Notes: a model not told the origin generated them from the sequence alone. Shown: positions 2,049 to 12,917, counted from the stretch's first letter. The stretch is DNA of 64,000 nucleotides from an uncultured Rickettsia sp. (GCA_964505265.1 CAZDGN010000001.1:86767-150766); one strand, 5' to 3'. Numbers and translations are program-made.

Positions 2049-4688
2049 ATGCAAGAGATAATTTCAAATTACAACCACCAATCGACTGAAAAAAAATGGC
2101 AAAATGAATGGGCGAAAACTGAAGTTTTTAAATTTCGCAACGATTCTCTTGCTCCAAAATTTTATGCTCTTGAAATGTTTCCATATCCTTCTGGAAAAAT
2201 TCATATGGGGCACTTGCGTAACTATACAATTGGCGATGTCGTTGCTAGATTTAAAAAACTTAAAGGCTTCGATGTTCTTCATCCAATGGGCTTTGATGCT
2301 TTTGGTTTGCCAGCGGAAAATGCCGCCTTACAACATAAAATTCATCCAGAAAATTGGACGCTTTCGAATATTGAAAATATGCGTCAAGAGCTCAAATCGA
2401 TTGGTTTGTCAATTGATTGGAAGCGTGAAATTATAACATGTATGCCCAATTATTACAAGCATGAGCAAAAAATTTTTTTGGATTTTCTTGATAAGGGTTT
2501 GGCATATCAAAAAGAATCTTTTGTAAATTGGGATCCGATTGATCAAACTGTGTTGGCTAATGAGCAAGTAATTGATGGAAGAGGTTGGAGAAGTGGAGCT
2601 TTAGTTGAAAAAAAGAAATTAAAACAATGGTTTTTAAAGGTCTCAGAATTTTCTGAAGATTTGTTGTCAGAGCTTCAAAATTTAAAAGGCTGGGATGATA
2701 GAGTGCTTTCAATGCAAGAAAAATGGATTGGAAAAAGTTCTGGTTTACTTATTGATTTTGAGATAAAATCAGCTCCACAATATCTTTCGAAAAAATTGCT
2801 TGAAACGGGAATTAAAGTATATACGACCAGACCAGATACACTATTTGGAGCTTCATTTATAGCTATTTCCGCCCACCATCCTCTGGCCTTAGAAATTGCA
2901 AATCACGATAAAGAAATAAAAAAATTTATTGATGAATGTAATAAAAATGCAGTGGATGAACAAACTCTAGAAAAGCAAGAGAAAAAGGGTGTTAAAACCA
3001 AAATTATCGTTAAAAATCCTATTGACGAAGAGTCAGAATTAAGTGTTTTTATTGCAAATTTTGTTTTAATGGAATATGGTACGGGTGCAATATTTGGATG
3101 CCCTGCTCATGATATTAGAGATTTTGAATTTGCAAAAAAATATCAACTAAAAATTTTACCAGTTGTCACTCCTTTTGATGAAAAAAATCAAGAAATTCCT
3201 TATTTAGAGGACGGAATAATGATTAATTCAAAATTTCTTGATGGTTTAAAAAATCATGAGGCAAAAGAAGAGGTATATAAATTTTTAAAATCTAAAAATA
3301 TCGCCGAAAAGAAAATTAATTATCGACTCCGTGATTGGGGGGTTTCGAGACAGAGATATTGGGGCTGTCCAATTCCAATTTTATATCTTGAAGATGGAAG
3401 AATTGTCAAGGTTCCAGAAAGCCAACTTCCGGTTGAATTGCCAAAAGATGTTGATTTCACTGGACTTGGCAATCCGCTAGAAAATCATCCAACATGGAAA
3501 TATACTTCTTATCAAGATGTTGATGGAAAAATTTATAAAGCCACCAGAGAAACCGATACTTTTGATACTTTTTTTGAAAGTTCTTGGTATTTTTTACGCT
3601 ATATTTCATTGGAAAATGACAAAGCTTTTGATAAGGATTTAGTTGATAAGATACTTCCGGTTGATCAATATATTGGTGGGGTTGAGCATGCGGTATTGCA
3701 TTTACTATATTCAAGATTTTTTGTTAAAGCTCTTAAAAAATGTGGATATTTATCGGTTAATGAGCCCTTTAAAAATCTATTAACTCAGGGAATGGTTTGT
3801 CATCATACTTTCAAAGACGAAGGTGGAAATTGGGTGTATCCAAGTGAGGCGATTGAATTGCAGAAAGATGTTTTTATTCACGAAAAAACTCGCGAAAAAT
3901 TAATCAAGGGTCGATATGAAAAGATGAGTAAATCGAAGAAAAATGTTGTAGAGCCGATAAATATTGTGCAAAGCTATGGGGCGGATACCGCAAGATTATT
4001 TATGCTTTCAGATACACCAGCTTCGAGAGATTTAGATTGGTCAGAAAGCGGTATTGACGGGGCTTGGCGCTATATAAATAGATTGTGGAAATTGGCTAAA
4101 AATTTTAGCAATATTACCAAAGGTAAATCATTTAATAGGCAAGCCGATTTTGTCAATTATGAAATTTTTAATAAATCACAACTGGAATTGTTAAAATTAA
4201 ATCATAAGACAATTTTTTACATTGACGATGAATTAAATAGACTTAGTTTTAATAGGGCAATTGCTAAGATTCGTGAATTCACCAATTTTCTTGAAAAATA
4301 TCAATTAAAAAAATTTGAAGAAAATAATTTAGAGATAAATAATGATTATGAATTGTTTTATTTTTCTTTAAAAAATTTGGCAATTTTACTCTCCCCAATT
4401 ACTCCGCATTTGGCAGAAGAAATATGGTTTGAATTAGAAAATCAAGGTTTGGTATGTGCTGCAAATTTTCCAAACTTTGATGAAAATTTTTTGAAAGAAG
4501 ATAAAGTTTCGATAGCTGTTCAGGTTTCTGGAAAGTTGCGCGCCGTAATTCAATTAACTAAGGATTGTTCGGAAAATGAAGTTAAGGAAACTGCTCTTAA
4601 ACAAGAAAATGTTCAAAAATTTTTATCTAATCAGGTGATTAAAAAAATAATTTTTGTTCCAAACAAATTACTAAATATCGTAATTTAA
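2049..4688 (+). CDS. leuS: Leucyl-tRNA synthetase
   Basis: 879 aa with the HIGH-type motif [15 protein letters not shown] and the KMSKS motif [13 protein letters not shown]1 editing insertion is present. Confidence 0.97.
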
Positions 4689-5272
4689 ACTTTTCAAAAA
4701 AAATAAAATGACAAAATAAAAGAAACCTTTTTTGATAAGAATATACCAAAAGTTTCTGTCGATTAGATATTCTTTTTAAGTTTTTTTATGGATCTCATCT
4801 AAAAATAAGAAGTCTAGTTTGTTATTTTAAATGATTTTTTTAATTAAAATGTTATTAAATAATCTCACCCAACAATCCTTTAAAAATTTTAAAAAACTTA
4901 TGATAAATCTACCAACTCAATCATTTTTGGTGTTTTATTTGGAGTGCTTTTGATAAATTATTATTTAAATATCATTTATTTGTTTTTTTTGAAAAATAAT
5001 TGATAATTATCAAGGTAATATATTCTATTTTTGAAACATTTTTAAAATTTAATAAAAATATAAGAAAATAATGAAGATGATTAAATAAAAATTTATAATA
5101 TTTATTTTAATAAATAAAAAAATTTTTTTTATTACACAATTTTGTTATCAAATAAATAATTATTAAAAATATATAAATCTAAAATAAAAATATTATTTTA
5201 ATTATTTTAATCGAATAAGTTTATTTGATTTGAAAAGCTATACTTAAATTTTTTTAAAAATAAAAATAAAAT

Positions 5273-6529
5273 ATGAAAAAACATAATATAAAAAATAATT
5301 TTTTTCCAAAAATACTATTTGGTCTGAAAATCAATATTTTGCTAATAGCTAATTCATATGCTGGCGGATATTCTTCTTCCCTATACTCAACATCTGGACT
5401 TGGAACGGCATATAGCGGTTCAGCTACTGGTTCACATGATATAAGTGATGTGTTTTTTAACCCTGCAATAACGGCTGGAAATAATAAATCTGAAATTATT
5501 TTGTCTGGTAGCTTATTAAATCTATCAATCGATCCCGATTTTATGAATTCAAATTTTGTTCCAGCTGGAACTGAAACGAGAAATGTTGGTACTAAAAAAC
5601 TAATTCCATCCTTGTATGCTTCAACCCCGATTAATCAAGACATTAATTTAAATTTTGCTATAACCACTCCTTTTGGTCTAGAAACCAGATACAACAGAAA
5701 CTGGGCTGGAAAATATCGTGCAGTTGATAGCTCTATTTCTACTATTAATTTTAACCCGTCTTTAGCCTTTAAAATTAATGACAAGCTTTCTTTTGGAGCT
5801 GGATTAGTTGCTCAGCATTATGAAGCTGAACTTACTAAAAAAGCCATATTAAATGCCAATCCTCTTGTTGAAGGATACGGAAGATTAAAAGGTAATGATT
5901 GGGGATATGGATTCAATTTTGGTGTTTTATATAAAATTTCTTCATACACCAATGTTGGAATTGGTTATCGTTCAGCCATTAAACATAATTTAAAGGGTAT
6001 TGCCAGTGTCAACGATAATTTGATGGTATCGAAATTTAAATCTAATACCACCACTCCTGAATCTTTAACTATTGGGGCTTCTCATAATTTAACCAATGAT
6101 TTGCAAATTTTATCAGACATTACTATAGCTAGATGGTCTCGCCTAAAATCTTTGAGAGTGACCACTAATAATCCACTCCTTGATTCAACTTCAAAATATA
6201 ATTGGAATAACTCAGTTTTATATTCGGTTGGTTCAAATTACAAAATTAGTAATAAAGATATATTTAGATTTGGTTTGGCTTATGAAAAAGACGCTGTTAA
6301 TGATAGAAACCGCGAGCCTACAGTTCCAAATGGCGATAAATATTGGATAACGGCGGGTTTAAATCATAAATTTGAAAATAATTTAGAGATTGATTTTACT
6401 TATGCTTACCAAAAATATAAAGCTAATAATATTAACATTAAGGAAATAGGAAATAATCAAGGAACCTTGGTTGGAAAATATCAGCTTAGAGCGGATGTTA
6501 TTTCCTTAGCAATTAAGAAGCAATTTTAG
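5273..6529 (+). CDS. FadL/OmpP1/TodX-family outer-membrane channel for hydrophobic compounds
   Basis: Signal peptide, then the family N-terminal hatch motif YSTSGLGTAYSGSATGSHDISDVFFNPAI. Alternating beta-strand pattern throughout, with a C-terminal aromatic residue (…KKQF). Confidence 0.8.
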   Translation: MKKHNIKNNFFPKILFGLKINILLIANSYAGGYSSSLYSTSGLGTAYSGSATGSHDISDVFFNPAITAGNNKSEIILSGSLLNLSIDPDFMNSNFVPAGTETRNVGTKKLIPSLYASTPINQDINLNFAITTPFGLETRYNRNWAGKYRAVDSSISTINFNPSLAFKINDKLSFGAGLVAQHYEAELTKKAILNANPLVEGYGRLKGNDWGYGFNFGVLYKISSYTNVGIGYRSAIKHNLKGIASVNDNLMVSKFKSNTTTPESLTIGASHNLTNDLQILSDITIARWSRLKSLRVTTNNPLLDSTSKYNWNNSVLYSVGSNYKISNKDIFRFGLAYEKDAVNDRNREPTVPNGDKYWITAGLNHKFENNLEIDFTYAYQKYKANNINIKEIGNNQGTLVGKYQLRADVISLAIKKQF

Positions 6530-6818
6530 CAATTGGACTTTTTAGAGATTAAATTTTTTGTTTTTTAGGTATAAAAATTTTAAAAAAACATTTTAATTTT
6601 GAGATAAACCTAACTTATAAAAAATAAATTTTGTTTAATAATATTTTACCCTTTTAAGTAAATTTTCAGCAACATTTTATTTTGTTGATATATCAAATTG
6701 GCTTTATTGTTTAATACAAAATATTAGGTTTAGTAGAATTTTTTGTTTTTCTAAATCGGATAATTTTTTTGTTTTGTATGTAAAAAATTATATAAGCAAT
6801 GCTGCAATTTATTTTTGC

Positions 6819-7028
6819 GGAAATATAAGGTTTGGATTCTTAAATTAAATTTAACATTTTAAAAGTAGGTAAAGATATAGATAAGTTATCGATAATTGAT
6901 TGATTTTAAATTATCAATTTATTGAAAACCATCATTTTTGCCTAAAGTTTAGATTTTATAATGTTAAAAATATATGGAAATTTTTAGGTTTGAAATTTTA
7001 TATAAATTTGAACTCTTAAATTAAATTT
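6819..7028. repeat. Two copies of a 35-50-bp AT-rich motif (GGAAAT-N-AGGTTTG…CTTAAATTAAATTT) inside the 987-bp spacer
   Basis: Copy 1 is 6819-6852, ggaaatataaggtttggattcttaaattaaattt. Copy 2 is 6976-7028, ggaaatttttaggtttgaaattttatataaatttgaactcttaaattaaatttt. A third, weaker AGGTTT-containing stretch lies near 6724. Confidence 0.4.
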
Positions 7029-7516
7029 TATCAAATTTTTTTATTTTATTTTTTTTAACCAAGCCATAAAAGGTCTTTTTAAAAACGATAAAAGCGATGA
7101 TATAATTCCTTATATCAAAAAATATTTAGTTAGAATTTGAAACTTCAAACCAATATATAAATTTTGTAATTGTATTTATTTAAGATTACTAGAAGCTACC
7201 AAATCTGAATAAATTTTTGGTAAATTATGTATGTTAATTTGATAAAATTTTTTTCAAATTAATAATTCAAAACAGAGCATAGCATATGCTAGTTTTTTTA
7301 GTAAATAATTTTAAGTCCGATTGTTATTATTTTAAGCTTTATGTCTAAGTGATATAGAAGCATAATATTTATGATAATTAAGAATAAAGTATATGTTTTT
7401 AAACTTAAAAATACAACCCAAAAAATTTTAAAAATTAACAATTTTAAAATTTAAAAAATACAACAACTATTTTATTAAAAAATATTTTTAAATCAATTTA
7501 AATTAAAACTTATTTT

Positions 7517-8950
7517 ATGGAAAATTTAAATCATAAAAACAAGGCACTAGTAAATTCTCGCAATCAAATCAATTCTCAATTTATTTTAGATTCATCTGAT
7601 GCATGGGAAATTGATAAGGAAAAGAGGTTCAATCTTGACAAGTTAAACGCTCGCTTTAGGGAGTCGATCCCTGTCCTTGATTTTCTTGATTGGAGAATTG
7701 AAAATATAAAAAGAGGCTATGCTGAAACAGTATTGCCTTTAAATGTTGCCTCTTCAAATCAATATATAACTCATCAGGCGGCATTAATGTTGTTATCAGC
7801 GGATTATACTGGTGGTATAGCGTTGGCAACATTATTTCATCTTGCACCAATTGTTGGTTTCTTTGAGGTCTTTGATGAATATGCAATTTATATGTGGGGT
7901 GCCAAATCAACTATTCGTTGGATTTGTCCTAGTACCTCTGATTTGATTTGTAGGTCAACGATACCCGAAGAATCACGTGAAGTTTTGGTCAATAGAATGA
8001 ATGCTAGTAAAAAAGTTTTGTTTACAGGAAAGGTTGAAATGTTTAACGGCACTAAATTAGTCGCCGATTGCGATTTTACTTATTGGGCTGAAGATATTCA
8101 CGGTCTTAGAAAAAAAGCAATGGATACTGATAAAATTGAAGTTTTATACGAGCATAAATTAAAGACTACTGCCAAGTTAATTTCTGGTTTTAGAGCTTTA
8201 GAGCAAGAGGAGGGAGAGTCTAGACTTGATGATCCATTTGCTTCGGTTATTGCTGGAAAGCACGGCATTACCTTAGCTAAAAGATTTAAAAAGCACACGC
8301 CACAAATTCAAGATATGGTTGTCGCTAGAGCTAAACATCTTGATAATGCGGTTTTGGATTTTATTAAAGATAAAGAATCTTATAATATTGTTAATATTGG
8401 TTCGGGATATGATAATAGATTTATCAGGCTAGATCTTTCAAAGGGCAATATTTTTGATTTGGATTTGCCAACAATGTTAAAAGATCGAGATAAAATTTTT
8501 AATATTTCTTCGAGAGAAAATGTTAAATTAGTTCCAATTGATTTAATTACCCAAGATATTGAAGAGGTTTTATTGAATCCAGCAAATGGATTTAATAAAG
8601 ACTTGCCAACTTTTTTTATTTGGGAGGGGGGGTCAATGTATTTTGGTCAAAATGAAATTAACAAAATTTTTAAAGCATTTTCTAAATTATTAAATAAAAA
8701 TAATAGATTATGGTTTGACTATGTATTATCCGATATTATTCTTGATAAAACTAATATTAAAGAAATTGAGGATTTTATGAAATCAATGAGAGTAATGGGG
8801 GAAGCCTTTATTAATGGCTTCAAAGACATTACTCTTTTTGTAAAAAAATATAATTTAGAAGTTTTGAATAATGAAAAATCTTCAAAAATTCTTAATATTG
8901 ATCAGCCTCATTTTGAGTTTTATAATTTTTGTATCGTATCAAAAAAATAA
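7517..8950 (+). CDS. Fusion protein with an N-terminal hotdog/PaaI-like thioesterase-type domain and a C-terminal LCM-family (leucine carboxyl methyltransferase-like) SAM-dependent O-methyltransferase
   Basis: N-terminal half: DFLDWRIENIKRGYAETVLPLNVASSNQYITHQAALMLLSADYTGGIALATLF. C-terminal half: DPFASVIAGKHG, VNIGSGYDNRFIRL, FDLDLPTMLKDR, PTFFIWEGGSMYF. Confidence 0.7.
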   Translation: MENLNHKNKALVNSRNQINSQFILDSSDAWEIDKEKRFNLDKLNARFRESIPVLDFLDWRIENIKRGYAETVLPLNVASSNQYITHQAALMLLSADYTGGIALATLFHLAPIVGFFEVFDEYAIYMWGAKSTIRWICPSTSDLICRSTIPEESREVLVNRMNASKKVLFTGKVEMFNGTKLVADCDFTYWAEDIHGLRKKAMDTDKIEVLYEHKLKTTAKLISGFRALEQEEGESRLDDPFASVIAGKHGITLAKRFKKHTPQIQDMVVARAKHLDNAVLDFIKDKESYNIVNIGSGYDNRFIRLDLSKGNIFDLDLPTMLKDRDKIFNISSRENVKLVPIDLITQDIEEVLLNPANGFNKDLPTFFIWEGGSMYFGQNEINKIFKAFSKLLNKNNRLWFDYVLSDIILDKTNIKEIEDFMKSMRVMGEAFINGFKDITLFVKKYNLEVLNNEKSSKILNIDQPHFEFYNFCIVSKK

Positions 8951-8965
8951 CTAAAATATTACATA

Positions 8966-11623
8966 ATGCCACAGCCTTTTATAGAAAGATTGCTTAAGTT
9001 TCTTTATGAAAATTATGAAAAAAGTAAATTAAATATCTTTTGGGGATCTTTAGTTTGCCTAGTTGGGCATCCATTATATTGGGCTGTGTGTGTATATCTT
9101 GTAAAAGAGCAATATGACAGTATTTTCTTTCGATTTAGCTCAAGCATAAGTTCTTTAGCTATCTTATTCTTGTTAATTTATTCTTCTCGAAAAAATTACA
9201 AAGCACAACCTTGGCTAATGATTCTGTGGTATTCGTGGGTAATGTGGATTTTGCCAATCACTTTCACTTATTTAATGCTTATTAATGATTTTTCTAAGAT
9301 TTGGTTAGTGGCTGAAACCATTATGATTTTTTTGGTAATTTTAATAGTGAACAATATTTTGCTGATACTGTTAATATTGTCTTTTGGGGTATTTTTTGGT
9401 TATTTATTTTATGATTATCTTTTTGGATATTCTTTAACCATAAGTTTTAGAGAGGTTGCCAGTATTTTATCCTTATTTCCATTTGCCTTTTTTTGCGGAA
9501 CGTTGTTTTTGACAAAGGCAAAAGTTGGCGATTTTGAAAGTAAAAAAGCCTCAATTTTCAAATCATTAGCAGGAGCAATAGCACACGAATTAAGAAACCC
9601 ACTAGCCAGCATCAGCGCTGTTGTAATTAATGTTGAAAATTATATTAATCAAATAAAAAAAAATATTTTTTTCAATGAAGAAATTGATGAAATTAGCAAT
9701 AATATTAAAAATGAAGATTTGGTTAAGAAAATTTTAAATAATTCTGAAAATCTTAAAAATGAAAGAAAACAATTGACACAATTTGTTGATTCGGTAAACC
9801 AGTCTGTTAGGCATGCCAATGATATTATTGATATTGTTTTAAGCGATATTTCTGAGAAAAAAATTGATGAGAATGATTTTATTTATTTATCCGCTTATGA
9901 AGTTATTGAAACCATCCAAAAATATTATCCTCAAAATCTGTATTCATCAAAAATTATATATGAAATTCCAGATCCAGAAAAATTTAGTAACCTATTTTTT
10001 AAAACCACCATCGAGAGATTTTACTTTATTTTCAACAATATAATTAAAAATGCTCTTTATTATTCAAATCAATTTCCAGACATGAATATTGCCATAAGTT
10101 TTGACCAAAAAATTATCTCTGGAAAAAAATATAACTTAATTAACTTTTTAGATAATGGTCCAGGAATTTCTAAATATAATATTAAAAAATTATTTAATGA
10201 TTTTTCTACTTTTAACAAAAAAGGTGGAACTGGACTTGGTTTAGCTTTTTGTAAAAAAAATATGAATTTATTTGGTGGTAATATTTATTGTGAATCGAAA
10301 TATGGCGAAGGTGATAGAGGGTGGACCAGATTTACTTTATTATTTCCATATCCTTCCAAAGAAGATGTTTTGAAAACCAAAGAACTTTCTCAGCAAAAGA
10401 AAATTTTATTGGTAGATGATCATGAAATTAACCTTATAGCCCTTAAAACTAAAATTCAAAAATTATTGCCAAACATAATTTGTGAAACCATAAGTAATTC
10501 AAGAGATGCAATAAATTTGGCCAAAAATAAAAAATTCGATTTGGTCTTAATGGATATTCAAATGCCTGAAATTGACGGAATTGAATCTGCTCGAATAATT
10601 AAAAAAACTAAAAATAATTTACCAATTATTTCGGCAACTTCACTTTCTTATGAAACCTTTTATGAAGATTTGAAAAATCGCGGTAATGTCAATGATTTTT
10701 CTGGCTATATTAGCAAAAATTCACCTTCCAATCAGGTAGCTAGAAATATTTCCAAACTACTTTTTAATTATGAAGATAATCTTAATTATCTTGGTAATAA
10801 AATTGAAAAAATATATAGAAAAATCGCTGGTAAAAAAATAATTTTGGCCGATGATCAGGAGTTGAATTTGGTTATGACTAGAAAAATGTTGGAAAAGTTA
10901 AATGTTATAACGATTGAAGCTAGAAGCGGTATTGAGGTATTAAATTTATATAAAAATAGTCTAGATAATTTTGGAAAAACAAGTTTTAATGCAATTATAA
11001 CCGATATTAATATGGATTTTTTAAATGGGGATGAGGCCTCAAGTGAAATTCGTAAAATTGAAGAAGCTAATAACATTGAATTTGACAAAAAAATACCCAT
11101 AATCGCACTTACAGGAGATGACTCTGCAGATGCGGTATCTGGATATTTTAAAAATGGTATGAATGATTATTTTGTTAAGGGTAAAAATTTTGAAATTTTG
11201 ATAAAGATTTTAGCCAATAATTTTGTTGATATCGATACCGATAAAGATTTCTTAGATAGAAGTTTTAATAATTTTCAACAACCAGAAATTAGCATTAATT
11301 CTAGTAAAGTTTTTAATTCAAATTTTATTTCTAATTTTTCCAAAGAAGAAAAGACGAAAATTTTAAATTTATTTATCGATGATAGTAAGCAAATAATTTC
11401 TAAAATAAAAAAATATAATTCTTTTGGCAATCATGAGGTAGTTAATAATCATTTACATTCTCTTAAGGGGATATTGGCAAATGTTGGTGCCGAAAAAATG
11501 TTCAATTATGTTAAAACAATTGATAAAATTTATAACAACAAATCTCAAAATGATGATTGGGTTAAAAATATAGATGATTTGCATTTAGAATTACTTAAAG
11601 AGTTGGATAGTTTTCTGAATTAA
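8966..11623 (+). CDS. Membrane-bound hybrid sensor histidine kinase: about 6 TM helices, HisKA, HATPase, REC, REC, Hpt
   Basis: Hydrophobic N-terminal segment spans aa 20-185. H-box is AIAHELRNPLASI, with the His codon at 9584-9586. N box is NNIIKNALYYS, G1 is LDNGPGIS, G2 is GGTGLGLAFC. REC1 is LLVDDHEINL…DLVLMDIQMPEIDG. REC2 is ILADDQELNL…AIITDINMDFLNG. Hpt is NNHLHSLKGILANVGA. Confidence 0.9.
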   Translation: MPQPFIERLLKFLYENYEKSKLNIFWGSLVCLVGHPLYWAVCVYLVKEQYDSIFFRFSSSISSLAILFLLIYSSRKNYKAQPWLMILWYSWVMWILPITFTYLMLINDFSKIWLVAETIMIFLVILIVNNILLILLILSFGVFFGYLFYDYLFGYSLTISFREVASILSLFPFAFFCGTLFLTKAKVGDFESKKASIFKSLAGAIAHELRNPLASISAVVINVENYINQIKKNIFFNEEIDEISNNIKNEDLVKKILNNSENLKNERKQLTQFVDSVNQSVRHANDIIDIVLSDISEKKIDENDFIYLSAYEVIETIQKYYPQNLYSSKIIYEIPDPEKFSNLFFKTTIERFYFIFNNIIKNALYYSNQFPDMNIAISFDQKIISGKKYNLINFLDNGPGISKYNIKKLFNDFSTFNKKGGTGLGLAFCKKNMNLFGGNIYCESKYGEGDRGWTRFTLLFPYPSKEDVLKTKELSQQKKILLVDDHEINLIALKTKIQKLLPNIICETISNSRDAINLAKNKKFDLVLMDIQMPEIDGIESARIIKKTKNNLPIISATSLSYETFYEDLKNRGNVNDFSGYISKNSPSNQVARNISKLLFNYEDNLNYLGNKIEKIYRKIAGKKIILADDQELNLVMTRKMLEKLNVITIEARSGIEVLNLYKNSLDNFGKTSFNAIITDINMDFLNGDEASSEIRKIEEANNIEFDKKIPIIALTGDDSADAVSGYFKNGMNDYFVKGKNFEILIKILANNFVDIDTDKDFLDRSFNNFQQPEISINSSKVFNSNFISNFSKEEKTKILNLFIDDSKQIISKIKKYNSFGNHEVVNNHLHSLKGILANVGAEKMFNYVKTIDKIYNNKSQNDDWVKNIDDLHLELLKELDSFLN

Positions 11624-12512: not shown

Positions 12513-12917
12513 TTAAATAATTATGCAGTGTTCATTAGTTGGTGATAAAATTTCATGATCATAAACTTTAAAATTTTGCGGTGGCGGAAAAAATGCATTA
12601 TGATGGTTTGAGAAAAATGAGTTAACAGAATATAATATCGGGTCTCGTCTGTTGTTTGAGAAAAATGAGTTAACAGGATATAGTGTGGGGTCTTGTGTTT
12701 TATTACGATTAATATGAATCGCATATTGTATATGAAAATTATCATGAGATCTATTATTTGTTTGTGGAGTTGTCGATTTATTAGAAATTTTAGAAAGATT
12801 TATTGAACTAAAAGAAGAATTAAATATGTATTCGTTACCATTCCCAAATGTGGTTCTTGCTTGATTTGATCCGCCTCCAGCTCCAAGACCACCTGCAATA
12901 AAATTCAATAATGACAT
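12513..12917 (-). CDS. Hypothetical small protein with an internal 16-aa tandem repeat and a C-terminal CIII
   Basis: The ORF fills the gap between glmM (stop 12918) and the GNAT gene (start 12511) exactly. The N-terminus is MSLLNFIAGGLGAGGGS. The repeats are DPTLYPVNSFFSNNRR and DPILYSVNSFFSNHHN. Confidence 0.6.
   Translation of the reverse strand: MSLLNFIAGGLGAGGGSNQARTTFGNGNEYIFNSSFSSINLSKISNKSTTPQTNNRSHDNFHIQYAIHINRNKTQDPTLYPVNSFFSNNRRDPILYSVNSFFSNHHNAFFPPPQNFKVYDHEILSPTNEHCIII
12607..12702. repeat. 48-bp tandem direct repeat (2 copies) inside the small ORF
   Basis: tttgagaaaaatgagttaacag starts at both 12607 and 12655. The copies diverge at a few positions. Confidence 0.8.

Follow-up and report, generated by a model that had tools for sequence, protein, structure and literature searches.

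To our knowledge, the autoinducers of Gram-negative bacteria comprise very few chemical classes, each of them defined by its synthase. The α-hydroxyketones CAI-1 of Vibrio and LAI-1 of Legionella are linked to the PLP-dependent acyl-transferases CqsA and LqsA, whose genes adjoin those of the receptors CqsS and LqsS, and these receptors, which rely on LuxU or LqsR for onward phosphotransfer, are usually regarded as α-hydroxyketone receptors tied to CqsA and LqsA. In Xanthomonas and its relatives, the acyl-ACP-derived signal DSF, a free cis-2-enoic acid, comes from RpfF, a thioesterase-active enzyme of the crotonase fold, and is sensed by RpfC, a hybrid kinase with several TM segments that contains REC and Hpt domains. 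Finally, the Phc system of Ralstonia uses methyl 3-hydroxymyristate or methyl 3-hydroxypalmitate as its signal and places the gene of a SAM-dependent enzyme, PhcB, directly upstream of that of the membrane histidine kinase PhcS, with PhcR, PhcQ and PhcX as partners. It is reported to be restricted to Betaproteobacteria (PMC10653808).

Here we describe a gene pair found in a 64-kb window, the whole stretch of DNA that was analysed (64,000 nucleotides), from a metagenome-assembled genome (MAG) of the Rickettsiales. It resembles the Cqs and Lqs systems in that a candidate synthase gene adjoins the gene of a receptor of the same family. In the position of CqsA or LqsA, however, there is a hotdog::carboxyl-methyltransferase fusion, the kinase carries a second receiver domain and its own Hpt domain, and a methyl ester instead of an α-hydroxyketone is predicted as its ligand. 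With RpfF/RpfC it would share the acyl-derived signal and the layout of the hybrid kinase, whereas the fold of RpfF and the chemistry of its signal differ. Our best reading is that the module represents a variant of Cqs/Lqs-type signalling not known before.

Organization of the locus

The candidate signal synthase is encoded on the plus strand at 7517..8950, starting with ATG and comprising 477 aa. Its stop is followed after 15 nt (8951-8965), on the same strand, by the gene of the candidate cognate receptor, a hybrid sensor histidine kinase of 885 aa (8966..11623, plus strand). The 15-nt gap contains no terminator-like site, in a terminator scan that was at chance level overall. Upstream, also on the plus strand, lies a gene for a FadL/TodX-type outer-membrane channel for hydrophobic molecules (5273..6529, 418 aa), which matches PF03349 (Toluene_X) over its full length with an E-value of 7.8e-78 and the NCBIfam FadL model NF007988 with an E-value of 4e-40, below the cutoff of that model.

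The FadL and fusion genes are separated by an AT-rich non-coding spacer of 987 bp (6530..7516), presumed to be the promoter region of the methyltransferase-kinase pair. Its longest ORF does not exceed 47 aa, it matches no Rfam family, and promoter-like sites are not more frequent in it than in shuffled sequence. The spacer is ~375 bp longer than its counterparts in two 98%-identical MAG loci, L002 and L003, to which it aligns poorly except for the last ~150 bp; in a further locus, L004, FadL directly abuts the methyltransferase gene. These coordinates bear out the 477-aa ORF, the 987-bp spacer and the 15-nt gap described in an earlier note on this DNA, and the AT-rich alphaproteobacterial host proposed there agrees with a source of 25-34% GC that shares 98% identity with L002 and L003. 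The Rickettsiales MAG is probably host-associated. Apart from the hybrid kinase itself, the 64-kb window encodes no protein with a REC domain, and no cognate response regulator was found in it.

The fusion enzyme

The N-terminal half of the enzyme contains a hotdog-fold domain of the DUF4442/YiiD_C/PaaI-like thioesterase type (7679..8110, plus strand; aa ~55-198) with a central helix at aa 82-104. The AlphaFold model of the whole 477-aa protein (pLDDT 88, pTM 0.85) shows by DSSP the strands of an antiparallel sheet around a long central helix, as expected for a hotdog fold. Foldseek matched this half to 1t82 and 1sh8 (E-value ~3e-8, target TM 0.69-0.72), two solved single-domain hotdog structures that are labelled only as putative thioesterases; in contrast to these, the domain in the window is fused to a methyltransferase. 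Pfam similarity is evident at the level of the family: DUF4442 was matched by 8 of 15 members (best E-value 4.6e-9) and YiiD_C by 10 of the 15 (best E-value 2.5e-4), while the window protein itself reached YiiD_C at a sub-threshold 14.4 bits (E-value 0.039, cutoff 27). The predicted fold thus agrees with the hotdog core that the earlier note had assigned to the first ~200 aa, and on which it had made its reading depend.

Across 81 sequences of the family, residues N81, Q82, Q87, D/E96, Y97, T98, G99, G100, P138 and S139 are invariant, and the central helix carries the invariant motif N-x4-H-Q-x8-D/E-Y-T-G-G. The HGG motif of PaaI is represented by H-Q-A-A in the window fusion. Position 96, always acidic (D/E), would be equivalent to the central-helix position of the catalytic Asp of PaaI-type enzymes. 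A thioesterase activity of this half would fit these features; hotdog domains can also serve as acyl-binding or dehydratase modules elsewhere.

The C-terminal half is predicted to form an OPCMT-like/LCM small-molecule carboxyl O-methyltransferase domain (8141..8947, plus strand; aa ~209-477). PF04072 (LCM) is matched over aa 225-387 with an E-value of 1.9e-22 (80.5 bits, cutoff 22.3) and TIGR00027 with 97.8 bits (cutoff 93.55), in keeping with the LCM-type layout that had been proposed for the last ~240 aa, and all four motifs cited in its favour (DPFASVIAG, VNIGSGYDNRF, LDLPTMLKDR and FFIWEGGSMYF) are present in the translation. The best Foldseek matches of the domain are ML2640c and Rv0731c (E-values of 1e-13 to 1e-12), followed by LCMT1, PPM1 and TYW4. 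ML2640c and Rv0731c are experimentally proven small-molecule carboxyl methyltransferases, and for OPCMT-like enzymes the SAM-binding residues have been defined together with the landmark residues that hold the carboxylate, Thr20 and Tyr/Phe194 (PMC10193983).

Profile alignment of ML2640c to the window protein places Thr20 at T218, Arg28 at R226, Arg90 at R271, ASG113-115 at G295-S-G297, Asp135 at D316, Asp164 at D342, Glu189-Gly190 at E370-G371 and Tyr194 at Y375. R226, G295, G297, D316, E370, G371 and Y375 are invariant in the 81 sequences, in which position 342 is Asp in most and Asn in a few; in the 15-sequence alignment A1, R271 is invariant and the T218 position is either Thr or Ser. Judged from this alignment, the domain keeps every landmark residue of the proven carboxyl methyltransferases, and both halves of the enzyme look catalytically competent. 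The fusion would then act by carboxyl O-methylation, with an acid as its substrate and a methyl ester as its product. Since the characterised OPCMT-like enzymes favour rigid acids and do not accept lauric acid (PMC10193983), a simple fatty acid is not guaranteed as the substrate.

The fusion domain and the OPCMT-like enzymes ML2640c, Rv0731c and MnMT4 have the fold, the SAM-binding residues and the Thr/Tyr landmarks in common. The latter, however, are stand-alone proteins of ~300 aa from Actinobacteria that prefer rigid, steroid-like acids and have no kinase linkage, whereas the domain in the window stands behind a ~200-aa hotdog module and is paired with a receptor kinase. The earlier note had counted a grouping with polyketide- or mycolate-type O-methyltransferases devoid of linked kinases as evidence against a signalling role. 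The domain does group with TIGR00027/OPCMT-like enzymes of mycobacteria; in most genomes, however, the fusion family is linked to kinases.

The adjacent kinase

The gene downstream of the fusion had been described as a 6-TM hybrid kinase, and our analysis agrees. Hydropathy indicates some six hydrophobic helices between aa 24 and 182. They lie in a membrane sensor domain (8966..9535, plus strand; aa 1-190) whose homologue in CqsS binds CAI-1. It is followed on the plus strand by a HisKA/HATPase_c kinase core identified with Pfam (9557..10363), with H207 in the H-box AHELRNPL, by two receiver domains (10403..11215; aa ~480-590 and ~622-750) covered by two stretches of PF00072 (E-value 1.5e-30), and by a C-terminal Hpt phosphotransfer domain (11360..11593; aa 799-876). 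The latter was matched by PF01627 with an E-value of 4.9e-5 and 23.9 bits, just below the Pfam cutoff of 24.6; the orthologous kinases in three other loci (L107, L108 and L110) were assigned an Hpt domain as well.

Using BLASTP, the window kinase aligned with V. campbellii CqsS at an E-value of 4e-59, starting at residue 17 in both proteins and including the receiver region, which aligned with the REC domain of CqsS. The CqsS used for comparison from locus L112 was authenticated through its neighbour CqsA, which scored 697 bits against NF005526 (cutoff 428). For the sensor alone, hhalign of the profile A3 with CqsS gave a probability of 99.7% (E-value 4.7e-26, 199 columns), and with the Vibrio CqsS sensor as the sole query the window kinase was found at an E-value of 6e-8 and methyltransferase-linked kinases in 35 loci at values down to 3e-21. 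A Porticoccaceae orthologue was required as a bridge from the window sensor to CqsS, and a word-index search of a large protein database with the sensor profile returned at least 14 matches. The window sensor shares with this receptor family the motifs PxYY, PQPYE, R, P..F and MxN..S..W, followed by HisKA, HATPase and REC. On these alignments and shared motifs, the kinase is a receptor of the CqsS/LqsS family.

We then compared individual positions, using the residue roles established for CqsS in V. cholerae numbering (PMC3376566). The methyltransferase-linked sensors (n=34) keep P31, Y33/34, PQPYE42-46, R51, P88, F91, N98 and W104, but of S107, F160, F162 and F166, the residues that read CAI-1's head group, they have replaced S107, F162 and F166. 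The S107 position is Ala or Cys in 34/34 of them. F162 is replaced by Ile, Met or Val and position 166 by Leu or Cys, next to an invariant, clade-specific Pro161, the alignment to CqsS being less certain in TM6 than in TM4. In a neighbour-joining tree, calculated with no support values, the methyltransferase-linked sensors form one clade apart from the CqsA-linked, the FabH-like-linked and the orphan CqsS-type sensors. V. campbellii CqsA has no homologue with E<1e-3 in the 64-kb window or in the 81 loci, and these contain no FabH-like gene either, the search being confined to the window and these loci.

The membership of the kinase in the CqsS/LqsS family had not been noticed in the earlier note. 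No NCBIfam model matched the sensor domain of either the window kinase or CqsS. LuxN_Vibrio was the top partial match for the window kinase and for true CqsS alike, through the kinase core only, and a LuxN-type receptor was rejected. A tblastn search of a plasmid collection with the AT-biased sensor domain of the window yielded no match.

Comparison with the Ralstonia Phc system

The proposal made previously for this locus was a PhcB-like synthase of fatty-acid methyl esters, offered as an architectural analogy. To compare it with the genuine system, we recovered the phcXBSRQ locus of Ralstonia (L106), which has the gene order X-B-S-R-Q. A published primer gave 25 exact matches, corresponding to nine phc loci and 16 chance matches in unrelated ORFs; the remaining GMI1000 primers had no match within 2-3 mismatches in these phc loci of the R. 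pickettii group. PhcB (L106, 7240-8652) falls in an exact-sequence cluster named by NCBI as 'class I SAM-dependent methyltransferase PhcB [Ralstonia]'.

Its only recognizable domain is Methyltransf_25/12 (PF13649/PF08242) at aa 288-401, with neither LCM nor hotdog. PhcB belongs to the generic class-I methyltransferases and its N-terminal region is unrelated, as opposed to the hotdog and LCM halves of the window enzyme, and the two proteins align with a BLASTP E-value of 3.4 and an hhalign probability of 1.5%. The HMM of the fusion family likewise found no match in the nine phc loci at E<=10, and homology of the fusion to PhcB was rejected on these grounds. PhcB was also absent among the best 120 family matches, the best 80 genome loci and ten divergent clusters, an absence that is uninformative alone as most entries are nameless. 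PhcS, which is not a hybrid kinase and whose TM domain is unrelated, resembles the window kinase only in HATPase_c and the H-box, that is, in the generic kinase core, and the window contains no PhcR-, PhcQ- or PhcX-like gene.

Both systems place the gene of a SAM-dependent enzyme immediately in front of that of a membrane histidine kinase, and the enzyme of the window is proposed to yield, like PhcB, a methyl ester of a fatty acid. The earlier analogy holds at this level, while kinship does not: as far as these comparisons reach, the window module is analogous and not homologous to PhcB/PhcS, and would be convergent with Phc.

Distribution and gene neighbourhoods

The fusion family, with a length of ~465 aa, comprises 129 clusters at 50% identity (E<1e-30). 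Its neighbourhoods were counted in the best 80 genome loci related to the fusion, whereas residue conservation refers to 81 sequences. In 34 of the 80 loci, the methyltransferase gene adjoins a kinase with a homologous 6-TM sensor; the carriers belong to Rickettsiales, Chlorobiota, Thiosymbion, a Burkholderiaceae MAG, Porticoccaceae and other Alpha- and Gammaproteobacteria. This kinase is nearly always located immediately downstream on the same strand, with the exception of L029, where it lies upstream in divergent orientation.

A further 32 loci, mostly of Planctomycetota, carry the fusion beside another hybrid His-kinase of ~1,970 aa, often with FadL on the opposite side. This kinase is composed of Ser/Thr kinase, STAND ATPase, TPR, GAF, HisKA, HATPase, REC and Hpt domains and has no sensor region in common with the 6-TM type, from which we conclude that the link between enzyme and kinase outlasts a swap of the sensor type. 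A hybrid kinase of either type is thus found within 1 kb in 66/80 loci from at least four phyla. The other 14 have neither type within 1 kb; some of these are cut by contig ends, and ~8, both Methylobacterium loci among them, have complete flanks, showing that the enzyme can occur without a linked kinase.

FadL is encoded within 3.5 kb of the fusion in 17/80 loci. It adjoins the methyltransferase gene in the Rickettsiales (L001-L004), follows the kinase in L025 and L110, and stands beside the methyltransferase gene in many planctomycete loci. No PKS or other biosynthetic genes were found in the neighbourhoods examined. Scanned viral contigs contained no relatives of the fusion enzyme, and tblastn against the plasmid collection retrieved stand-alone LCM domains only, and no fusion. 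A literature search found no publication on the hotdog::LCM fusion family.

A candidate methyl-ester signalling module

We propose that FadL, the fusion and the CqsS-type kinase form a small-molecule signalling module, in which the synthase of a signal of the acyl methyl-ester type is combined with its cognate receptor, and assign this reading a probability of about 0.5. The hotdog half would bind, and probably hydrolyse, an acyl thioester (acyl-ACP or acyl-CoA) from fatty-acid metabolism, and the OPCMT-like/LCM half would methylate the freed carboxylate with SAM. The product would be a neutral, membrane-permeant acyl methyl ester, possibly 3-hydroxy- or 3-oxo-substituted, that partitions into membranes and may cross the outer membrane with the aid of FadL. 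[quoted passage not shown] The phosphorelay would then run from His through REC and Hpt to a response regulator encoded outside the window. The logic of thioester cleavage, carboxyl O-methylation and sensing by a lipid-type kinase had been suggested before; it is strengthened by the synteny across phyla, the FadL linkage and the carboxylate-holding residues, in contrast to the kinship with PhcB/PhcS. The fusion and the kinase are probably an undescribed pair of signal maker and receptor.

The alternative that survives best, though we hold it to be unlikely, is a module that modifies signals or senses lipids. The kinase would sense an exogenous hydrophobic molecule arriving via FadL, such as fatty acids of the host or community or a foreign α-hydroxyketone, and the fusion would methyl-esterify this molecule or its acyl-thioester derivative as a co-regulated quencher or homeostasis enzyme. 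FadL is classically an import channel, the MAG comes from a probably host-associated member of the Rickettsiales, and the Methylobacterium enzyme has no kinase; in addition, the authors of the OPCMT work proposed a role in acid homeostasis or detoxification (PMC10193983), and Chlorobia have cqsA/cqsS elsewhere (PMC10158934). The thioesterase domain, however, points to an endogenous acyl thioester and not to an imported free acid, and in its head-group residues the receptor clade differs from α-hydroxyketone receptors. The tight same-strand pairing with one receptor clade, joined by a second, independent kinase pairing, moreover follows the pattern of a synthase-receptor cassette (for the principle, see PMC3376566).

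Less plausible still is an ordinary tailoring enzyme of lipid or secondary metabolism, to which the neighbouring kinase would mean nothing beyond co-regulation. Some family members bear the JGI label 'O-methyltransferase involved in polyketide biosynthesis / PaaI-like thioesterase', and the ~8 loci with full flanks and no adjacent kinase would fit this view. It is difficult to reconcile with a receptor clade specific to the fusion enzyme, with the recurrence of two types of hybrid kinase within 1 kb across at least four phyla, and with neighbourhoods devoid of PKS or other biosynthetic genes.

There is little to recommend a protein methyltransferase comparable to LCMT1/PPM1, which act on the C-terminal leucine of PP2A, or to CheR, which acts on chemoreceptors. 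The LCM half would here tune the kinase or a relay protein, with the hotdog as a regulatory acyl-binding domain, as the proximity to kinases, the naming of the Pfam family after protein carboxyl methyltransferases and the significant sequence and structure matches to LCMT1 and PPM1 might suggest. The best structural matches, the equivalents of Thr20 and Tyr194 and the TIGR00027 score are nevertheless those of small-molecule carboxyl methyltransferases, lipid chemistry is suggested by the strictly conserved active-site-like motif of the hotdog and by the linkage to FadL, and a common protein substrate is unlikely, since the two types of kinase linked to the enzyme have no sensor region in common. 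Finally, a true Phc system, with the fusion as a divergent PhcB making methyl 3-hydroxy-myristate/-palmitate and the kinase as a PhcS homologue, can be dismissed for practical purposes, as only the architecture (a SAM methyltransferase of ~470 aa, then a membrane kinase) and the similar predicted product class (a fatty-acid methyl ester) speak for it, against the sequence, domain and gene-content differences described above.

Returning to the signal synthase with its cognate receptor, we more tentatively extend this reading to the whole family. The fusion could be a widespread, unrecognised class of autoinducer synthase, whose esters would be read by a CqsS-family clade in Proteobacteria and Chlorobiota or by giant GAF/STAND kinases in Planctomycetota, with FadL as a gate. 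The CqsS/LqsS scaffold might then be a receptor for lipid signals in general, to which unrelated synthases have been joined as new partners (CqsA, the fusion and perhaps, in Paraburkholderia, a FabH-like enzyme), and a Rickettsiales lineage would possess a quorum-sensing-like circuit.

For a whole CqsS-type clade, the partner is not CqsA or LqsA but an enzyme unrelated to them whose chemistry can be interpreted, and this pairing extends over green sulfur bacteria, marine symbionts, freshwater Burkholderiaceae, Porticoccaceae and a Rickettsiales lineage. Planctomycetes combine the enzyme with another hybrid kinase. Should the ligand be made by the enzyme, a class of signal would be added, and the swapping of synthases on a conserved receptor scaffold would be one route by which signalling systems evolve; methyl-ester signalling would, if so, have been invented a second time, independently of the Phc system of Ralstonia. 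For annotation, the comparison corrects a pitfall, as the window enzyme is not PhcB. Green sulfur bacteria also have a canonical cqsA/cqsS pair elsewhere (PMC10158934), and because of this, cross-talk between the two systems is possible in them.

Gene arrangement

The fusion enzyme and the adjacent kinase form a system in which a different, chemically interpretable enzyme stands in the synthase position of a CqsS/LqsS-family receptor clade, and which is not Phc-like by descent. The earlier note had placed a hotdog::LCM fusion directly before a membrane kinase, and ORF, domain and model checks show this feature to be real. The fusion gene (7517..8950, +) starts with ATG and encodes 477 aa; the hybrid kinase gene (8966..11623, +; 885 aa) follows after 15 nt. 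Upstream, a FadL/TodX channel gene (5273..6529, +; 418 aa; Pfam E 7.8e-78) is separated from the enzyme gene by a 987-bp spacer (6530-7516) without any ORF longer than 47 aa. The lengths of the ORF, the gap and the non-coding stretch all agree exactly with those first read from the sequence. Composition and locus comparison identify the source as an AT-rich Rickettsiales MAG.

The spacer is ~375 bp longer than in L002 and L003, two 98%-identical MAG loci, with which it aligns poorly save for the final ~150 bp. The extra DNA contains no ORF and gave no Rfam match. In another compared locus, L004, the FadL and enzyme genes abut.

Folds and conserved residues of the enzyme

Pfam places the LCM domain at aa 225-387 (E 1.9e-22), and the enzyme belongs to NCBIfam TIGR00027 (97.8 bits, cutoff 93.55). 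The N-terminal half by itself gave only a sub-threshold Pfam match to YiiD_C; among 15 family members, YiiD_C was matched by ten and DUF4442 by eight (best E 4.6e-9). An AlphaFold model built from a 15-sequence alignment was confident (pLDDT 88, pTM 0.85). Structural matches to its N-terminal half are two solved hotdog proteins labelled 'putative thioesterases', 1t82 and 1sh8 (E ~3e-8, target TM ~0.7), and those to its C-terminal half are ML2640c, Rv0731c, LCMT1, PPM1 and TYW4; together with the LCM and TIGR00027 assignments, these matches bear out the two folds originally proposed.

Across 81 sequences from several phyla, near-invariant positions are found both in the hotdog central-helix region (N81, Q82, Q87, D/E96, Y97-T98-G99-G100, P138, S139) and in the methyltransferase motifs (G295, G297, D299, R301, D316, D342, E370-G-x-S-M-Y375). 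ML2640c and Rv0731c are experimentally shown small-molecule carboxyl methyltransferases, which hold the carboxylate with Thr20 and Tyr194 and bind SAM through Arg28, Arg90, A113-S-G115, Asp135, Asp164 and Glu189 (PMC10193983). In a profile alignment, the former landmarks map to conserved T218 and Y375, the latter to conserved R226, R271, G295-S-G297, D316, D342 and E370. Since all of them fall on conserved residues, the best reading of the C-terminal half, from its sequence, is a small-molecule carboxyl O-methyltransferase. In the hotdog half, an acidic residue occupies what we take to be the position of the catalytic Asp of PaaI-type enzymes, and this half may act as a thioesterase; both halves look functional. 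Thioester release followed by carboxyl methylation, as the earlier note suggested, is a reasonable predicted chemistry and has gained support from the landmark residues and synteny.

The kinase belongs to the CqsS/LqsS family

The window kinase comprises about six TM helices, HisKA, HATPase, two REC domains and Hpt, and its TM sensor domain recurs beside the enzyme gene in many loci. The motifs of this sensor seemed to us CqsS-like, a presumption that prompted a comparison with CqsS. When a Porticoccaceae orthologue was used as a bridge query against a plasmid collection, it matched Vibrio second chromosomes and betaproteobacterial replicons. The match in the V. campbellii locus L112 is a 690-aa kinase, which we identify as CqsS because the product of the adjoining gene is CqsA (NF005526, 'alpha-hydroxyketone-type quorum-sensing autoinducer synthase'; 697 bits, cutoff 428). 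The alignment of the window kinase with this CqsS starts at residue 17 in each protein and runs through sensor, kinase core and REC (BLASTP E 4e-59). With a sensor-domain profile, hhalign gave 99.7% probability over CqsS residues 10-208 (E 4.7e-26), and the Vibrio CqsS sensor used alone finds enzyme-linked kinases in 35 loci (best E 3e-21). The sensor kinase is thus homologous to that of the Vibrio Cqs system, whereas CqsA is missing from the window and its position is taken by the hotdog::LCM enzyme; neither the window nor any of the 81 loci has a CqsA or FabH-like gene. In an NJ tree, calculated without support values, all enzyme-linked sensors fall in one clade, apart from CqsA-linked CqsS, a FabH-like-linked Paraburkholderia kinase and plasmid orphans.

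The Paraburkholderia caribensis plasmid 2 locus (L113, NZ_CP013105.1) adds a third type of lipid enzyme placed where this receptor family has its 'synthase': a FabH-like KAS III at 2849-3886 (NF006720 E 1e-30, below cutoff), whose gene precedes that of a CqsS-type hybrid kinase (3914-6490) by 27 bp. On Polaromonas sp. JS666 plasmid 1 (L114) and on Dyella and Rhodanobacter plasmids (L115/L116), CqsS-type kinases without an adjacent synthase, which may be eavesdropping receptors, neighbor an annotated response regulator in the first and a DEAD/DEAH helicase gene in the other two.

Comparison with the Phc system

PhcB was not seen among the family matches listed, and was therefore recovered directly with a published GMI1000 phcB deletion primer (PMC5481312). 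This primer matches 25 metagenome contigs exactly, nine of which share a ~470-aa ORF at the primer site. The Ralstonia phc locus (L106) encodes, in order, an LqsR-like regulator, a 470-aa protein, a 442-aa TM kinase, a REC+HK protein and a REC protein. Its PhcB has Arg22 and its PhcQ Arg154, matching published mutants, and its exact sequences occur in clusters named by NCBI 'class I SAM-dependent methyltransferase PhcB [Ralstonia]' and 'sensor histidine kinase PhcS'; the JGI name is '3-hydroxypalmitic acid methyl ester biosynthesis protein'.

Comparison of PhcB with the window protein gave a BLASTP E of 3.4, and with the fusion-family profile an hhalign probability of 1.5%; the fusion-family HMM found nothing in phc loci even at E<=10. 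The likeness of PhcS to the window kinase is confined to HATPase_c and the H-box. Homology to PhcB/PhcS is refuted by these results, and the PhcB likeness drawn in the earlier note stands as an analogy of architecture only: the sole domain found in PhcB is Methyltransf_25/12 (aa 288-401), whereas the window enzyme is hotdog::LCM. Residues 1-280 of the genuine PhcB (L106 7240-8652, -), including the R22 adaptive-mutation site, match no Pfam or NCBIfam model, so that most of this protein is uncharacterised.

Ligand-reading residues

Judged by the residue roles summarized for V. cholerae CqsS (PMC3376566), the enzyme-linked clade retains the region-I core and W104. S107, conserved in Vibrio and Legionella, is replaced by Ala or Cys in 34/34 enzyme-linked sensors; Ile, Met or Val stands in place of the gatekeeper F162 and Leu or Cys in place of F166, and position 161 is an invariant Pro specific to the clade. 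This pattern would fit a ligand whose acyl tail is similar but whose head group differs. The clade is variable at the tail-length position (Vc C170, Vh F175; PMC3285556); by BLASTP register the window kinase has Phe there (F181), which is only a weak hint.

Conservation of the pairing and proposed mechanism

A histidine-kinase core lies no more than 1 kb from the enzyme gene in 58 of 80 related loci. In 34 of the 80, a CqsS-type sensor is beside the enzyme; its gene nearly always follows the enzyme gene directly and in the same orientation, whereas in L029 it lies upstream and is divergent. Represented among the 34 are Rickettsiales, Chlorobiota, Thiosymbion, a Burkholderiaceae MAG, Porticoccaceae and further Alpha- and Gammaproteobacteria. 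In 32 of the 80, mostly from Planctomycetota, a ~1,970-aa protein with Ser/Thr kinase, STAND ATPase (AAA_16), TPR, GAF, HisKA, HATPase, REC and Hpt domains adjoins the enzyme in its place (L073 1738-7725, -; L074 1794-7694, +; ~30 further mostly planctomycete loci), and a FadL-type gene often flanks the enzyme on the opposite side. FadL is found within 3.5 kb in 17/80 loci, and one alphaproteobacterial MAG has the order HK, enzyme, hybrid HK, FadL, Hpt.

We give roughly even odds that enzyme and kinase are a synthase-receptor pair. The hotdog domain would take an acyl thioester, the fused methyltransferase would turn the acid into its methyl ester, and FadL may aid outer-membrane passage. The CqsS-type sensor would read the molecule within the membrane, and the kinase's own REC-REC-Hpt relay would pass the signal to a regulator; no other REC protein is encoded in the 64-kb window. 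Several points count against this reading, which is open to direct test. Neither kinase type lies within 1 kb in 14/80 loci; some end at a contig edge, but ~8 are complete on both sides, and these include Methylobacterium, whose enzyme gene lies among mobile-element genes. Characterised OPCMT-like enzymes did not take lauric acid as a substrate (PMC10193983), the closest hotdog structures are putative thioesterases only, a canonical cqsA/cqsS pair is present elsewhere in green sulfur bacteria (PMC10158934), and a literature search found no paper with experimental work on any fusion-family member.

The kinase-less copy of Methylobacterium sp. J-030 (L109 9001-10362) lies among a resolvase, an integrase and an 883-aa TIR-domain protein, which suggests a mobile or defence-island context. 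A Chlorobium sp. signalling island (L022 501-11907; also in L018 and L021) encodes, in this order, an SRPBCC/Polyketide_cyc2 lipid-binding protein, a paralogous second hybrid kinase of CqsS-like type, a hybrid kinase with three PAS domains, the enzyme and its linked CqsS-type kinase. The paralogous sensors group in a clade of their own, together with the kinase encoded immediately before the enzyme in L025.

Elsewhere in the window, a 134-aa ORF (12513-12917, -) with an internal near-repeat (DPTLYPVNSFFSNN / DPILYSVNSFFSNH) had no match in a Pfam search; its counterpart is called as a gene in the compared locus L001, between a GNAT gene and glmM. Just upstream of leuS, L001 376-1347 (+), corresponding to about 1025-1996 of the window, encodes a 323-aa protein with faint matches to leucine-rich repeats, a type of protein common in host-associated bacteria.
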